This document shows, piece after piece, positions 11,510 through 58,098 of a stretch of 64,000 nucleotides of DNA. This DNA comes from Pseudomonadota bacterium (GTDB taxonomy: Bacteria > Pseudomonadota > Gammaproteobacteria > Steroidobacterales > Rariloculaceae): positions 208,138-272,137 of the forward strand of contig JAYZFC010000002.1 of assembly GCA_036337035.1 (NCBI GenBank), written 5' to 3'. How positions within the stretch are numbered: position 1 is the first letter of the stretch; each line of letters starts with the position of its first letter. The position numbers were made by a program, and so were the translations under genes. The notes under the pieces were generated by a model. That model was not told where the DNA came from and searched no databases. It saw nothing but the letters and a program-made list of their open reading frames with translations.

Positions 11510-11600
11510 GGAGAGATGGCTGAGTGGCTGAAAGCGCTCCCCTGCTAAGGGAGTATACATTAATAGTGTATCGAGGGTTCGAATCCCTCTCTCTCCGCCA
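11510..11600 (+). tRNA. tRNA-Ser (anticodon GCU), class II with long variable arm, encoded CCA
   Basis: Hand-folded. Acceptor GGAGAGA/TCTCTCC. D arm GCT-GAGTGGCTGAA-AGC. Anticodon arm CTCCC-CTGCTAA-GGGAG. 19-nt variable arm. T arm GAGGG-TTCGAAT-CCCTC. Discriminator G followed by CCA. Confidence 0.92.
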
Positions 11601-51619: not shown

Positions 51620-52453
51620 ATGTTAATTAATAATTATACTCTATTTCTTATAATTTGCATTATTAGCTTAATAATAGGAAGCTTTATTAGCTTGGCTAGC
51701 TTTAGAATCCCAATTATTTTGGAAAGAAAATACAATAAAACACTTATATCTAAATACAATAAGCATAAATTTTATAATTTAGTAATACCGCGCTCCAACT
51801 GCCCTCAATGTCTAAATATCATTCCTTTATACCAAAATATTCCATTATTTAGCTATATTACTCTTAGAGCTAAATGTAGTAATTGTAAAAAACCAATTTC
51901 TATTAGATACCCAATCATTGAATTAGTCACCCTTCTGGTATTTATACTAACTTTCTTTCAATTTGGGTTAAGCCTAGATTTGATAGCAATCTATATATTT
52001 GCATGTTTATTAATCACAGTATCAATAATTGATATTGAGCATGGGCTGCTCCCAGATATAATAACAATACCAATATTAATTGTAGGGATTTTATTTAATT
52101 ATCTATTTTTGGGCGTAACTGAGTTTTACTCAAGTTTAATTGGCGCTATCTGTGGTTACTATAGCTTATGGATAATTTATAAAATTCATCATTTTTTTAC
52201 TAATAGGGAAGGATTAGGTTATGGTGACTTTAAGCTTATGGCTGGTTTAGGGGCATGGATAAGTTGGCAATTTATACCATTTATATTATTCTTTTCTTCA
52301 ATACTAGGAATATTTTATTCAATATTTTTAATAATGTTCAAAAAACATACTATTAGGTCAACTATCCCTTTTGGTCCATTTCTAGCTATTGTAGGCTTCT
52401 TTACTTTTTTATATAAACAAGAATTGTTAGTATTTTATCTACTATATTTATGA
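51620..52453 (+). CDS. pilD: prepilin peptidase / N-methyltransferase (A24 family)
   Basis: 277 aa, polytopic. CPQC...CSNC zinc motif. GYGDFKLM catalytic Asp motif. Confidence 0.85.
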   Translation: MLINNYTLFLIICIISLIIGSFISLASFRIPIILERKYNKTLISKYNKHKFYNLVIPRSNCPQCLNIIPLYQNIPLFSYITLRAKCSNCKKPISIRYPIIELVTLLVFILTFFQFGLSLDLIAIYIFACLLITVSIIDIEHGLLPDIITIPILIVGILFNYLFLGVTEFYSSLIGAICGYYSLWIIYKIHHFFTNREGLGYGDFKLMAGLGAWISWQFIPFILFFSSILGIFYSIFLIMFKKHTIRSTIPFGPFLAIVGFFTFLYKQELLVFYLLYL

Positions 52454-53055
52454 ATAATAACATATTTAAAATAGGTCTAACTGGAGGTATAGCTACTGGT
52501 AAAACAACAGTTGCTGATATATTTTCAAATCTTGGTATAGAAATTATTGATACTGATGAAATAGCAAAAGAGGCTGTTAAACCAGGAGAACCAGCACTAA
52601 AATTAATAATTGATTCTTTTGGTAAAGATATAATAGAAAAAAAATCTAAAAAACTAGATCGTAGAAAATTAAGAAGAATAATTTTTGAAAATAATGAATA
52701 TAAAAAAAAGCTGGAATCAATTCTGCACCCTATCATTCGTAAAAAAACTCTTGATCTCCTACTAGAAACAAAATCAAAGTATGTAATAATTGTTGTACCC
52801 CTTTTAATTGAAACAGGGTTTATAGAGATTGTGGATTATGTAATAGTTGTCGATTGCCCCAAAAAAACTCAACTCCAAAGATTATTGGAGAGAGATAAAA
52901 TAAGTAAAAAAGATGGGGAAAACATAATAAAAAACCAAATAAATAGGAAAGATAGGCTAAAAAAGGCTGATATAGTAATCGATACTAGCAAGGATATAAA
53001 ATCTGTTATAAATCAAGTTAATAAGATATATTTAAGAATTGCTCAAGGATCCTGA
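52450..53055 (+). CDS. coaE: dephospho-CoA kinase
   Basis: 201 aa. GLTGGIATGKTT P-loop, PLL(I/F)E motif. pilD-coaE linkage as in Pseudomonas. Confidence 0.9.
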   Translation: MNNNIFKIGLTGGIATGKTTVADIFSNLGIEIIDTDEIAKEAVKPGEPALKLIIDSFGKDIIEKKSKKLDRRKLRRIIFENNEYKKKLESILHPIIRKKTLDLLLETKSKYVIIVVPLLIETGFIEIVDYVIVVDCPKKTQLQRLLERDKISKKDGENIIKNQINRKDRLKKADIVIDTSKDIKSVINQVNKIYLRIAQGS

Positions 53056-53622
53056 CCAATTTAATTTTTGGACCGATCTCTCACTTTTCTCTAATATTTT
53101 AATACCATAATCTTTCCTTAAATCACAAATTCTTTTATTTAATAATTCATCATCACAATTATATGGCCATTTTTTTATCATAGCCTTAGTTCTTGATTTA
53201 ATTAATTTCTTAACTATCCGAGTATTTTGATAAAGCTTAATAAATCCTTTTATCCCTACTTCAGTAAAAAATACTTTATATAATTTTAACAATTCTTTGT
53301 TTGTAAATGAATATTTTAATAAATCTAACCAACTAAATTGCGTTCCATAAAGAGTCCATGTATCAAGCATTGCTTCTTGTTCCAAAGATATATCAAGGCC
53401 AAAAATAACATGTGTACAATCATGGTTCCTCATTATTGATGATCCAGGATCATCTTCTATTTTTTTTATTGCATTGTTATTTATTTCCGCTGATTTGAGC
53501 AAAGAATAATATATTTCTAACCCTTCTTTAAGCGTAAGATTACAATCCTGATCCTGGTAAGCTATTTTTTCAGTCATATAGTTCTTTTTAAAACAATAAT
53601 TTATATATAAATATAATAACAA
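53032..53622 (-). CDS. hypothetical protein with Coq4-like HDxxH-x(n)-E motif
   Basis: MRNHDCTHVIFGLDISLEQEAML resembles the Coq4 zinc-ligand motif HDxxHx10-13E. The start is more likely the ATG at 53577 (MTEKIAY). Motif-level evidence only. Confidence 0.4.
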   Translation of the reverse strand: MLLYLYINYCFKKNYMTEKIAYQDQDCNLTLKEGLEIYYSLLKSAEINNNAIKKIEDDPGSSIMRNHDCTHVIFGLDISLEQEAMLDTWTLYGTQFSWLDLLKYSFTNKELLKLYKVFFTEVGIKGFIKLYQNTRIVKKLIKSRTKAMIKKWPYNCDDELLNKRICDLRKDYGIKILEKSERSVQKLNWSGSLSNS

Positions 53623-53683
53623 TAGTAATTTTATTTTATAAGATTATACTACTATTTAATCATTATTATTATTAATAAATCAA

Positions 53684-54481
53684 ATGGCTATACCAAAAGA
53701 ATTGCTTCTAGAAAATAAAGATATGATCAATTTTGATCAACCTCTAAATGAGATTATGAGAACCTTCTTGAGAACGGAGTTTCTATATAAGCAACTTTTA
53801 TTTCATCAAAATAATTTATCTGACTTTAGCGTAAGAGCGGCAATCTCTTCTATTATAGAAATAATAAGTATTATAAATAGATCTGGATTAAAAAATGATC
53901 TAATAAAGCAATTTGATAAACAGGAAGATATTTTACTATCATATAAAAAACAGTCTGGCGTAGATCTAGATAGGATAGAAAAAATATTTATTGAAATAAG
54001 TAGTGCTAAAGAAGAATTATTAGCTCTTGATAGTGATCTACCATCTAAAATTTATGATTCTGAGTTCCTGCATGCAATAAAACACAGAAGTAATATACCA
54101 GGAGGAACTTGTATATTTGATTTGCCAAATTTTGCCTATTGGGTTAATCAACCAAAAGAGGAATTGCTATCTGGTCTTGAAGAATGGATTAAGGAAATTA
54201 AACCTATTTGTGAATCAATTATTCATATCTTATGGCTTATAAGAAATAGCAATATTACTAACAATGAAATTGCAAAAAATGGAATGTTCCTCCATGAATT
54301 AAGTAAAGATAATAAGATAATAATGATTACTATATCTATTAATAAAAATTCAAATTTTTATCCAGAAATCAGCGCTGGAAAACATAGATTTTCAGTAAGA
54401 TTTCTAGAGTGGATAAGCATATACGATCATACATCCCAAGTGAAAAATGATGTTAATTTTCATCTATCTCTTTGCCAATAG
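53684..54481 (+). CDS. zapD: cell division protein ZapD
   Basis: FDQPLNEIMRTFLRTEFLYKQL matches the ZapD N-terminus (YEQPLNERMRTWLRLEFL). coaE-zapD neighbourhood as in E. coli. Confidence 0.72.
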   Translation: MAIPKELLLENKDMINFDQPLNEIMRTFLRTEFLYKQLLFHQNNLSDFSVRAAISSIIEIISIINRSGLKNDLIKQFDKQEDILLSYKKQSGVDLDRIEKIFIEISSAKEELLALDSDLPSKIYDSEFLHAIKHRSNIPGGTCIFDLPNFAYWVNQPKEELLSGLEEWIKEIKPICESIIHILWLIRNSNITNNEIAKNGMFLHELSKDNKIIMITISINKNSNFYPEISAGKHRFSVRFLEWISIYDHTSQVKNDVNFHLSLCQ

Positions 54482-54868
54482 AAAATCTTGTATTTTCTGA
54501 TCAGCAGGCAATAACTTAAATTTAAATAGGTCTTCAGGATGGACCCAAGCAATTTCCTGACCTTCTTTTGATTTTGGCTCACCAAGAAAACTTTTTATAA
54601 TCCAAATATCCAAATTAACCATATAATCTTCATATTGATAGTAATAATTCATGATAGGCTTAGCCTTACTCACAATAATACCTAATTCTTCTAGGAGTTC
54701 TCTTGAAAGAGCAGACATATTATCTTCTTGTAAGTTAATTTTGCCGCCTGGAAATTCCCAATATCCTTCCATATATTTACCAGGTAGCCTCTTATTAATA
54801 AGAACATTATTGTTATTATCAAAAATTAATCCTATTACTACTTTTTGGTAATGCTTTCCATTATGCAT
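54464..54868 (-). CDS. mutT: Nudix 8-oxo-dGTP diphosphatase MutT-like
   Basis: Nudix box GGKINLQEDNMSALSRELLEELGI. Lies downstream of secA, as in E. coli. I use the ATG at 54868; the ORF-track start at 54937 would overlap secA by 56 nt. Confidence 0.72.
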   Translation of the reverse strand: MHNGKHYQKVVIGLIFDNNNNVLINKRLPGKYMEGYWEFPGGKINLQEDNMSALSRELLEELGIIVSKAKPIMNYYYQYEDYMVNLDIWIIKSFLGEPKSKEGQEIAWVHPEDLFKFKLLPADQKIQDFLLAKR

Positions 54869-54881
54869 GTTTTGTAAATTT

Positions 54882-57758
54882 CTATTTTCCGCAACAATGC
54901 TTATATTTTTTTCCTGATCCACAAGTACATAGTTCATTTCTTCCTACCTTTGGGCCTTTTCTTACAAAAGGTGCTTTATCAGCGGTATTAGTAGAAGAAA
55001 GTTTTTTTTGTGCTGTCAAGCCTGGTGCTGGTGCATGCTTAAAGTTCATATTCTTTATAGGAGTATTTTTAGGCTTTAATACTTCTGCATCTTCTGGTTT
55101 TCTAATCTGAACCTTAGATAAAGTAGAAATAGTATCAATCTTTACTCTATCTAACATATCACTAAACATTTCAAATGCTTCTCTCTTGTATTCTTGCTTA
55201 GGATTTTTTTGTGCATATCCCCTAAGATGTATCCCTTGTCTTAAATATTCAAGCGCCCCTATGTGCTCTTTCCAGTGGATATCTAAGTTTCTTAACATTA
55301 AATTCTTTTCGAGATTATGCATAACTTCAATTCCAACACTTTCTTTTTTTTCTTCATATTCTGATTCAACTTTATTAATACAATATTCTCTTACATCCTG
55401 TTCATTAAGAGAGTGATCTGACTCTAGTAAAGAATGAATATTGATCTGGGTTCCAAATTTTTGATCAAGAATTTTGCTCAAGCCTTCTTTATCCCAAACT
55501 TCTTCTACACTCTGAGGCTCAATAAAATCATCAATAACTTGATTGATCACCTCTTCTCTTATCGACAGAATAGCTTCTCCAATATTTTCTGAATTCATAA
55601 GTTCAGACCGCTGCTTATAAACAACTTTTCTTTGATCATTAGTAACATCATCATATTCTAAAAGCTGTTTTCTAATGTCAAAATTATGAGCTTCAACCTT
55701 TCTCTGGGCCCTTTCTATTTGTTTAGATAATATTTTACTTTCTATAGCCTCATCTTCTTGCATACCAGCTCTAGACAATAAATTTTTTGTTCTGTCAGGA
55801 TCCCCAAAAACTCTCATTAAATTATCCTCCATTGAAAGATAAAACCTACTTGATCCTGGGTCACCTTGCCGACCTGACCTTCCTCTTAATTGATTATCTA
55901 TCCTTCTAGAATCATGTCTTTCGGTACCAACTATATGCAAACCACCTGACTCTATTACTTTTCTATTAGATTTTTCCCACTCAATTCTAATGTTCTCTAT
56001 ATCATTATTATCTTCTAAAATATTTAATTTTCCCCCCAAAACTATATCTGTACCTCTGCCAGCCATATTTGTTGCTATAGTAACTACCCCAGGCCTACCA
56101 GCTTGTTCCACTATCTCTGCCTCCTGTTCATGATATTTAGCATTTAATACTCTATGAGAAATATCTTCCTTCTTTAACAAAGATGACAGTAGCTCAGAAG
56201 TTTCTATTGAAGTTGTACCTACTAAAATAGGCTGACCTTTTAATCTTCTCTCATTTATATCTTTAATTATTGCAGCAAATTTTCCTTTTTGAGTTAAATA
56301 AACTAAATCTGGAAGATCATCTCTTACCATAGTTAAGTTAGTTGGAATTACTACAGCTTCTAAACCATATATTTGCTGAAACTCAAAAGCTTCTGTATCG
56401 GCTGTACCTGTCATGCCAGAAATTTTATTATATAGCCTAAAATAATTTTGAAAGGTTATAGAGGCTACTGTTTGATTTTCCTCTTTTACTTTCAGGTTTT
56501 CTTTTGCCTCAATAGCTTGATGCAATCCATCAGACCATCTCCTACCAGCCATTGTTCTTCCAGTAAATTCATCAACTATTACAACCTCGCCATCCTTAAC
56601 AATATAATCAACCTCTTTTTTAAATAAAGCATGCGCCCTTAGGGCAGAATTTAAATGATGTAATAAACGTATATTGCCAGCATCATAAAGACTGTCGCCA
56701 TGCAAAAGCAGCCCTGCCTCTTCAAGAAGACTCTCAGCTTTTTCATGACCTTCTTCTGTTAAGTGAGCCTGTTTAGACTTTTCATCAATAGTATAATGCC
56801 CAGGGATAATTAACTTACAAACAGTCGGGTTATTATTTAAGTCTATTTCTACAAGGTGGCAACCTTTATTCTTGCTAATTTCTAATGCTTCATCTATCTT
56901 CTTTATACCTAAAGAATTTCCATTTATATCAAGTAAAGAAATATTTGATGCATCAATATCATCATTCACCTTACCTTCTGGGATATTATGAATCTTTAGT
57001 TTTGGCACAAGCTTATTAATACTTACATAGAGACTAGTACTCTCATCAGATTTACCTGAAATAATTAATGGTGTTCTTGCTTCATCAATTAAAATAGAAT
57101 CAACTTCATCAACAATAGCGAATGCAAGCTTCCTCTGAAACCTATCTTCTAGTCTAAAAGCTAAATTATCCCTTAGATAATCAAAACCAAGTTCGTTGTT
57201 AGTAGCATAAGTTATATCTGCCTGATAGGCCTCATGTTTATCTATAGGATTTTGACCGCTTTTTATTACCCCAACATTTAAACCCAAAAATTTATACACA
57301 GGTCCCATCCAATCTGAGTCCCTTTGAGCTAAATAATCATTTACTGTAACAATATGCACGCCGTCACCTGTCAAAGAATTCAAGTACGCCGGTAATGTAG
57401 CAACTAGAGTTTTCCCTTCTCCTGTCCTCATTTCAGCTATTTTTCCATTATGTAAAGCTATTCCACCAATTAGCTGAACATCAAATAATCTAAGCCCAAG
57501 TACTCTGACAGCTGCCTCCCTCACTATAGAAAATGCTTCAGGCAATAATTGTTCTAGTGATTCACCTCTAGAATATCTAAGACGGAAATCTTCTGTTTTC
57601 TTAGATATCTCTTCATCGGTTAGTAACTTGACTTCACTTTCTAGTATGTTGATTCTTGATACAATTTTACTATAACTTTTGAGTAGTCTTTTATTACGGC
57701 TACCTAGTAATTCAGTAAAAAAATTATAAAAAAAGCTAAACAAAGATAAATTCCTCAA
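54882..57758 (-). CDS. secA: preprotein translocase ATPase SecA (with a ~50-65-aa lineage-specific insertion)
   Basis: 958 aa, colinear with E. coli Sec[39 protein letters not shown], and C-terminal zinc tail [14 protein letters not shown]. Extra segment at residues ~255-319. Confidence 0.98.
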
Positions 57759-57813: not shown

Positions 57814-58098
57814 ATGATTCGAAAAAATCCTTCTTCTATATCAAAAATTTTAAACTCTAAATTAGGAAAAATGTCTAATTTGATAAAAGAAATCAATAGG
57901 CATAATAAAATAACAAGTAAAATCAAGGGTTTATTGCCTAAGGAAGATGCCGACCACTTGGTTGATGCAAATATATCCAAAGATGGAACTTTAATACTTC
58001 TAGTTGACTCCTCTGAATGGGCCGCCCGTATACGCTATATTGCACCTGACCTTGTGAAAAAAAAGATTATTGTAAAAGTTCTACCTCAAAAAAACTAA
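57814..58098 (+). CDS. DUF721 (DciA-like) protein
   Basis: 94 aa. [26 protein letters not shown] matches the DUF721 core (L.v.v.ss.wa.el......l). Sits between secA and lpxC, as in several non-enteric Gammaproteobacteria. Confidence 0.5.

Follow-up and report, generated by a model that had tools for sequence, protein, structure and literature searches.

Why does the SecA protein encoded here carry about 65 residues at a point where Escherichia coli SecA has 13, and what are these residues? The question is raised by the secA gene in a 64,000-nucleotide (nt) stretch of DNA from a marine gammaproteobacterium (contig JAYZFC010000002.1 of assembly GCA_036337035.1), hereafter called the window, by which the whole stretch is meant. 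The extra segment is a homologue of the N-terminal domain of translation initiation factor IF3 (IF3-N), it lies inside the PPXD, the mobile clamp domain of SecA, and it is common to a large clade of Gammaproteobacteria. We tentatively read it as an enlarged acidic prong of that clamp.

An IF3 N-terminal domain in SecA

The gene and the parts of the PPXD that are needed below are as follows. Residue numbers of the window SecA may be off by a few, since the SecA proteins of the closest relatives (955 and 952 amino acids, aa) have their N-terminus called 3-6 codons further in.

54882-57758, minus strand: secA, gene of the housekeeping preprotein translocase ATPase, 958 uninterrupted codons with a TTG start
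56997-57053, minus strand: first PPXD helix, SecA residues ~236-254, directly upstream of the insert; aligns to E. coli 228-246, with a helix predicted at 238-248
56802-56996, minus strand: whole extra segment, SecA residues 255-319, in the place of an acidic loop of ~13 residues
56970-56996, minus strand: N-terminal linker of the insert, residues 255-263, KIHNIPEGK (clade consensus K-L-H-x-P-P-x-G)
56805-56969, minus strand: IF3 N-terminal-domain-like core, residues 264-318, beta-beta-alpha-beta-beta
56508-56801, minus strand: rest of the PPXD, residues 320-417, beginning with a native hairpin; aligns to E. coli 260-314

The Pfam profile IF3_N (PF05198) matches the SecA sequence with E=1.1e-13 and 51.6 bits (gathering score 26.9) over residues 264-330, profile positions 1-67 of 70, and it matches the 65-aa segment alone with E=3.3e-14. 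A phmmer search of the PDB gives a gapless alignment to Geobacillus IF3-N (1tif_A residues 7-60, E=1.6e-7), with 22/54 identities (41%) counted in the printed alignment, and a match to E. coli IF3 (8jsg_A) with E=1.9e-6. The initial annotation, which was made from the window's letters without database searches, had proposed a gapless alignment to IF3-N, with ~19/46 positions matching the Geobacillus sequence by hand count; its IF3 sequences and its count were both essentially right. When 1.84 billion representative proteins were searched with phmmer, 118 matches were returned, nearly all of them IF3s or IF3 fragments at 35-49% identity; the exceptions are fragments of SecA from relatives (three) and a handful of repeat proteins. 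The resemblance to IF3 thus stands against real database sequences. SecA residues 264-318 are a true homologue of the IF3 N-domain, with a resemblance far beyond chance.

Only the N-domain is present. The NCBIfam infC model (TIGR00168) reaches 47.2 bits, below its whole-protein cut-off of 60, and only its positions 5-74 of 170 are matched; for IF3_C, Pfam shows no match in the SecA sequence even at E<=10. Native SecA PPXD sequence follows directly on strand beta4 of the insert, and the lysine-rich linker helix of IF3 is absent. That the segment would cover the whole beta-beta-alpha-beta-beta core, without the linker helix or C-domain, had been claimed at the outset, and is borne out by the Pfam, PDB and Foldseek matches and by the missing IF3_C. 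A practical consequence for annotation is that an IF3_N Pfam match inside a protein of 960-970 aa is not an infC gene.

The fold was predicted in two ways. AlphaFold2 (AF2), run on an alignment of 45 diverse inserts, gives a beta-beta-alpha-beta-beta structure with a predicted local distance difference test score (pLDDT) of 73. In a Foldseek search of the PDB with this predicted insert, the top 10 matches are all IF3-N, with 1tif at E=1e-5, a template modeling (TM) score of 0.75 and a root mean square deviation of 1.1 Å over 56 columns; below these ten the scores drop to noise, ~TM 0.4. The full-length AF2 model shows the same secondary structure as the model of the insert alone, with strands at 272-276, 282-287, 301-306 and 312-317, a helix at 288-298 and a core pLDDT of 85-91. 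The insert (residues 251-320, pLDDT 80-91) is among the most confident stretches of the full-length model. It should be noted that the fold evidence consists of predictions and that AF2 has seen 1TIF; sequence and fold evidence agree.

Alignments of IF3 to the window (tblastn, Pfam) extend past the insert into the native SecA hairpin (residues 320-338, window 56745-56801, minus strand), which resembles IF3 DYGKYKYEQQKK. This likeness is taken as fortuitous because the hairpin sequence is also found in SecAs that have no insert, although in principle it could have provided microhomology at the insertion site. The window insert also matches leucine-rich-repeat-like proteins (PDB 3goz; six stretches of an 1820-aa multi-repeat protein, E=2e-12), and its stretch at window 56850-56930 (minus strand) resembles an RI-type leucine-rich-repeat unit. 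A kinship with leucine-rich repeats was judged to be a coincidence of motif and composition in the low-GC window sequence. The insert was also considered as an intein or mobile element. Pfam finds only IF3_N in the segment and no Hint/endonuclease or transposase domain, and within the clade the insert is fixed and passed on by vertical descent; this candidate was rejected.

The insert lies within prong 1 of the PPXD

The SecA that carries the insert is otherwise an ordinary one. It scores 1219 bits with NCBIfam equivalog NF009538 (cut-off 814) and 1090 bits with TIGR00963 (cut-off 800). The Pfam matches to SecA_DEAD (PF07517), SecA_PP_bind (PF01043), P-loop_SecA (PF21090), SecA_SW (PF07516) and SEC-C (PF02810) are all significant, and the domain set is complete, with NBD1 (DEAD), PPXD, NBD2, the scaffold/wing region and the C-terminal zinc-binding SEC-C motif.

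The two flanks of the insert can both be aligned with E. coli SecA (chains 2vda, 2fsf, 6gox), which has 13 residues between them (native 247-259, IRQEKEDSETFQG), as against 64 in the window SecA, close to the initial estimate of about 65 for about 14. In 69 other SecAs of gamma- and betaproteobacteria, taken from species-representative genomes, the spacing from 'LIISG' to '[VIL]DEK' is 31-47 aa, as compared with 86-93 aa in SecAs that bear the insert. The loop at the insert site in these 69 insert-free proteins varies in length from 8 to 24 aa.

The domain limits of E. coli SecA are NBD1 9-220, PPXD 221-377 and NBD1 378-411 (PMC6620043). Since the insert replaces E. coli 247-259, it is found ~25 residues inside the PPXD, past the first helix, whereas the initial annotation had placed it at the junction of NBD1 and PPXD (E. 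coli 220/221). This position agrees with the Pfam SecA_PP_bind match, which covers residues 311-417 (profile 20-110 of 110): directly beyond the insert it starts again from profile position 20, and profile positions 1-19 are unmatched before it.

The PPXD acts as the mobile clamp in which the substrate is trapped. When it closes, the ATPase is activated, and it also contributes to holding the SecY TM6/7 loop (PMC5963308). On closing, it binds NBD2 through two prongs, prong 1 (E. coli aa 250-275) and prong 2 (320-347), both of which make salt bridges with NBD2 in molecular dynamics (MD) simulations of E. coli SecA (Krishnamurthy et al., bioRxiv 10.1101/2021.01.18.427065). Thus an insert that replaces E. 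coli 247-259 is within prong 1.

Distribution, origin and selection

The 120 SecA clusters closest to the window protein were drawn from NCBI, ENA, JGI and Logan (64-92% identity, 952-992 aa). All of them have a precomputed PF05198 match, and in the alignment their inserts are uniformly 63-66 residues long. The N-terminal linker of the insert is rich in Pro and Gly, constant in length and conserved in an alignment of 121 SecAs. The consensus of the insert is SLKLHxPPxGxANxDIEAxxVxLxxxxGxxLGxMSIxEALAxAxExGxHLIExDAxAKPxxCQLxVPGD. On their own, 45/45 non-redundant, diverse inserts match IF3_N, the best with E=1.8e-17. Alignment of orthologues, which the initial annotation had put forward as a way to map the carriers, thus shows the insert to be a conserved feature of a large clade and not peculiar to the window SecA. 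Names given by submitters to carriers of the insert include Gammaproteobacteria bacterium TMED78 and 'Candidatus Rariloculaceae'; the nearest relative is from a Tara Oceans assembly.

A scan of species-representative genomes extends this distribution. Among the matches listed, the insert is found in further uncultured Gammaproteobacteria, in the complete 'Chromatiales bin74' chromosome (CP070671.1) and in Woeseiaceae, and matches to the flanks only are found in Steroidobacteraceae, Solimonas, Methylomicrobium, Halieaceae, Comamonadaceae and others. A search seeded with a Woeseiaceae SecA gave 120 clusters of 965-988 aa (plus one 819-aa fragment), 106 of which are flagged with PF05198; the inserts of the other 14 are similarly long and have diverged below the Pfam threshold. 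When four Woeseiaceae and 'Chromatiales bin74' variants were tested, three passed the IF3_N threshold and the fourth reached 22.4 bits. Woeseiaceae inserts have an extra, very acidic loop after the first hairpin, which brings the spacing to 85-98 aa. They keep the IF3-like motifs 'AD(L/V)V' and 'C(R/K)', where the window-type clade has 'HL(I/V)E' and 'CQL' instead. Every carrier-clade sequence that was examined, ~240 clusters in all, has kept the insert, and no loss was seen.

When 87 SecAs were placed in a neighbour-joining tree from an alignment stripped of the insert columns, all 26 carriers fell into one clade, sister to insert-free SecAs of the Steroidobacteraceae type; the tree carries no support values, and the single clade is suggestive only. 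Because the carriers form one clade next to the insert-free Steroidobacteraceae, the comparison of sequences suggests that the insert was gained once, anciently. It can serve as a clean molecular signature for the carrier clade of Gammaproteobacteria. By the submitters' names, this lineage includes Woeseiaceae, an abundant group in marine sediments.

The ratio of nonsynonymous to synonymous substitution rates (dN/dS, Nei-Gojobori method, the window and two relatives) is 0.15-0.27 within the insert, compared with 0.07-0.09 over the remaining SecA sequence, with dS near saturation for the more distant pair. The values for the insert show that it is under purifying selection.

Residues of IF3 function have been replaced

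In IF3, the invariant R25 and the well conserved R66 contact the elbow of the initiator tRNA and matter for fidelity and growth (PMC9723500). The corresponding positions were compared in 91 distinct window-type inserts and in 113 IF3 sequences, the latter being a biased set made up of the IF3s most similar to the insert. The counts at four positions are:

R25 position: Arg in 87/113 IF3s; in the inserts (n=91) Ser 41, Glu 25, Lys 5, Ala 5, Asn 5, Gln 5 and Arg 0
R66 position: Lys or Arg in 106/113 IF3s; in the inserts Gln 74, Arg 6, Glu 5, Leu 3 and Lys 2, basic in only 8/91
R20 position: Arg or Lys in 67/113 IF3s; Glu in 70/91 inserts
D52 position: Asp in 108/113 IF3s; His in 88/91 inserts

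In addition, 87/91 inserts have Lys or Arg before the conserved Pro. The core positions of IF3 are kept in the inserts, namely N16, I19, V24, L26, G31, L34-G35, A42, A46, G50, L53-V54-E55, P62 and C65. Thus the inserts retain the IF3-N core and have lost the residues with which IF3 binds tRNA. Because of that loss, the module is probably a re-used structural module and not an RNA binder.

Possible roles of the insert

The reading that we favour, tentatively and at a probability somewhat short of even, is that a copy of IF3-N inserted once into the acidic loop of PPXD prong 1 and is now an enlarged acidic clamp prong, a protein-contact module that tunes the clamp. A copy of the IF3 N-terminal domain, its fold core only, without linker or C-domain, would have entered a short, acidic, length-variable surface loop of the SecA PPXD a single time, in the ancestor that Woeseiaceae share with TMED78, 'Ca. 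Rariloculaceae' and other members of a large sister group of marine, uncultured Gammaproteobacteria, and would have been retained under purifying selection since its gain. The copy would have kept the hydrophobic core and the glycines of IF3-N, lost the arginines for the initiator-tRNA elbow and become, or stayed, acidic, and most likely it has no role in translation now. By enlarging an acidic prong of the mobile PPXD clamp, it may offer a contact surface that meets NBD2, or some other partner, when the clamp closes around the substrate. Such a contact could tune clamp closure and, through it, ATPase activation and the trapping of substrate.

Homology, predicted fold, position, distribution, selection and the loss of the residues that contact tRNA are results of the analysis; the clamp-tuning role we infer from the position of the insert and from its charge. 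The host loop of insert-free SecAs is acidic (e.g., RQEEEDG; -0.15 charge per residue), and the inserts are acidic as well, with a mean net charge of -3.9 in the window type and -7.7 in the Woeseiaceae type. This continuity of charge is counted in favour of a clamp prong.

Several points weigh against a tuned clamp contact. The contact between prong 1 and NBD2 comes from MD of E. coli SecA and not from a structure of the window protein. The full-length AF2 model is poor overall (predicted TM score, pTM, 0.34) and gives no reliable three-dimensional placing of the module against NBD2. The bias of the IF3 comparison set, mentioned above, also counts here. By dN/dS the insert changes at 2-3 times the pace of the remaining protein, and in Woeseiaceae it has been remodelled with extra loops; these two observations are as compatible with a decoration under loose constraint as with a tuned interface. 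Finally, when carriers are compared with non-carriers, only three clade-specific conserved positions are found outside the insert: K425 for Q (window ~56484-56486), R683 for N (~55710-55712) and Q824 for V (~55287-55289). With only three such substitutions, none of them in NBD2, there is no sign of a co-evolved docking surface. As to location, K425 is just ahead of the inward PPXD stem strand, and R683 is at the start of the scaffold helix.

The main rival, to which we give a lower, rather unlikely standing, is that the insert is a neutral decoration: a domain that folds stably, sits in a surface loop that tolerates it, has no specific interaction or regulatory role and is kept only because its loss or misfolding would damage SecA. 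Judged by sequence comparison, its faster evolution, its remodelling in Woeseiaceae, with loops gained or lost inside the insert, and the near lack of co-varying positions elsewhere in SecA would suit this explanation equally well. The variable length of the host loop across Proteobacteria speaks for it too, as does the fact that other lineage-specific SecA inserts are tolerated (PMC7023208). Set against this are the retention of the insert without loss throughout the carrier clade, its low dN/dS, and a set of near-invariant, clade-specific polar residues, probably on the surface (His at D52, Glu at R20, Gln at R66, and Lys or Arg before Pro), which would be needless in a mere spacer. Both the universal retention and these near-invariant polar residues point to some specific constraint on the module.

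The same conserved, clade-specific surface residues may instead mark a docking site for a partner protein of the lineage, such as a chaperone, a membrane component or a translation or targeting factor, in the place of an intramolecular clamp contact. The PPXD, as the mobile domain that faces client and SecY (PMC5963308), would be a suitable place for such a site, and a YabR-IF3 complex (PDB 9a5a) is among the fold matches. However no candidate partner was found, and the locus is an ordinary ftsZ-lpxC-secA-NUDIX-zapD arrangement; we regard this explanation as improbable.

A role at the ribosome should also be considered. The initial annotation had suggested, as a speculation, a ribosome- or RNA-contacting function. 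On this view the embedded IF3-N would still bind the 30S platform or the elbow of the initiator tRNA in the manner of IF3, and would couple SecA to ribosomes or to translation initiation. The homology to IF3-N is real, SecA is a known ribosome binder that docks at the 50S exit-tunnel site (PMC5963308), and the Woeseiaceae inserts still have their two IF3-like motifs. However, Arg at the R25 position, which is needed in IF3 (PMC9723500), is found in none of the inserts, most of which also have Gln at the R66 position, and the net charge of the inserts is about -4 to -8. The linker and the C-domain are absent, and the same source (PMC9723500) attributes most IF3 functions to the C-domain alone, which can sustain growth. 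In 30S complexes, moreover, the bulk of IF3-N is away from the 16S rRNA and near uS11 on the platform (PMC5037330), which from the geometry of the ribosome would be far from the 50S site where SecA docks. Because of the replaced tRNA-elbow residues, the net negative charge, the missing linker and C-domain and the distance between the two sites, a ribosome- or RNA-binding role is unlikely, though less so for the Woeseiaceae variants; for the module as a tRNA or 30S-platform binder we consider the chance small.

Slightly smaller still is the chance we give to a module that recognises some translation component, e.g., the 30S platform/uS11, the IF3 C-domain or another part of the initiation complex, and so couples SecA to initiating or idle small subunits. 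If this were true, translation initiation and Sec targeting would be connected in a way not known from any bacterium, and the Woeseiaceae variants with 'ADLV' and 'CRI' motifs would be the best candidates for it.

An artefact could be thought of, such as a chimeric assembly, a frameshift or a match that arose by chance from low-GC composition, and the window insert is indeed rich in N, I, L and K and draws spurious leucine-rich-repeat matches. This explanation is refuted and has next to no probability: the reading frame is uninterrupted, the insert is present in hundreds of independent assemblies from all four sources, high-GC relatives included, and all 45 diverse inserts match IF3_N.

The insert is a case of domain exaptation: a domain of a translation factor has become part of the mobile clamp in the essential Sec motor and has stayed fixed there over long evolutionary time. 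It also offers a natural experiment on the SecA clamp, with a folded 55-residue domain in the place of the 13-residue acidic loop of E. coli, for which a contact with NBD2 on clamp closure has been proposed. A comparison of SecAs from carriers and non-carriers could test models of clamp dynamics and ATPase activation.

The secA locus and other features of the window

The neighbourhood of secA is ftsZ-lpxC-(dciA-like open reading frame on the opposite strand)-secA-NUDIX-zapD, the canonical gammaproteobacterial order at the end of the dcw cluster. The order ftsZ-lpxC-secA-NUDIX-zapD is also found in relatives, and no clade-specific neighbour gene is present at the locus. The open reading frame (ORF) between lpxC and secA (window 57814-58098, plus strand) has 94 aa and overlaps the 3′ end of lpxC by 4 nt; its equivalent in relatives has a DciA (PF05258) match. 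The NUDIX (MutT-like) ORF (window 54464-54937, minus strand), 157 aa as listed, overlaps the 3′ end of secA by 56 nt. In relatives the NUDIX product has 134 aa and starts just past the secA stop codon; for that reason the real start in the window is probably an internal ATG.

The TTG start of secA (window 57730-57758, minus strand) is in a very AT-rich region. At the other end of the protein, the SEC-C motif (SecA residues 944-958, window 54885-54930, minus strand) ends in Cys-Cys, and the clade consensus, like E. coli SecA, ends in Cys-His (…KHCHGRL).

By Rfam and ARAGORN, the single RNA gene of the 64-kb window is a tRNA-Ser(GCT) (window 11510-11600, plus strand). A minimum in G+C of 26%, compared with ~32% overall, is found at window 52001-54000, among the genes on the zapD side, and the GC skew there is near zero. 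No infC gene is present within the window.

Comparison with known systems

In a full-text literature search, no paper connecting SecA to a domain like that of IF3 was found, in keeping with the initial annotation, whose author had not been aware of any described SecA with such a module. The SecA-IF3_N architecture is visible in precomputed Pfam annotations and, as far as could be found, is undescribed.

Compared with the IF3 N-domain itself (PF05198; 1TIF), the insert has the same predicted fold, keeps the core positions and aligns to the Geobacillus domain at 41% identity with no gaps. It differs in being embedded in SecA, without the linker helix and C-domain, in the replacement of R25 and R66, in being more acidic and in scoring below the infC equivalog cut-off; in the window-type clade, R20 has in addition become Glu and D52 His.

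Compared with a canonical gammaproteobacterial SecA (E. coli; 2FSF, 2VDA), the window protein has all domains and motifs, its gene is at the same locus, its scores are far above the equivalog cut-offs, and the flanks of the insert align residue for residue. The difference is confined to prong 1 of the PPXD, where 64 residues, predicted to fold as an autonomous domain, replace 13.

The closest parallels are lineage-specific inserts in other SecAs. Thermotogales and Aquificales have a 50-aa insert, and other thermophiles have a second large one, both located in NBD1 (PMC7023208). These signature inserts, and likewise the variable subdomain of NBD2, resemble the insert described here in being clade-restricted, surface-exposed and conserved additions to an essential motor that serve as phylogenetic signatures. 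However they lie in NBD1 or NBD2, and in PMC7023208 the thermophile inserts are never related to IF3, whereas the insert of the window SecA is in the PPXD and is recognisably a translation-factor domain. Thus SecA with a lineage-specific insert is a known kind of protein, and what is unusual here is that the insert is a recognisable translation-factor domain, and that it is carried in the moving clamp.

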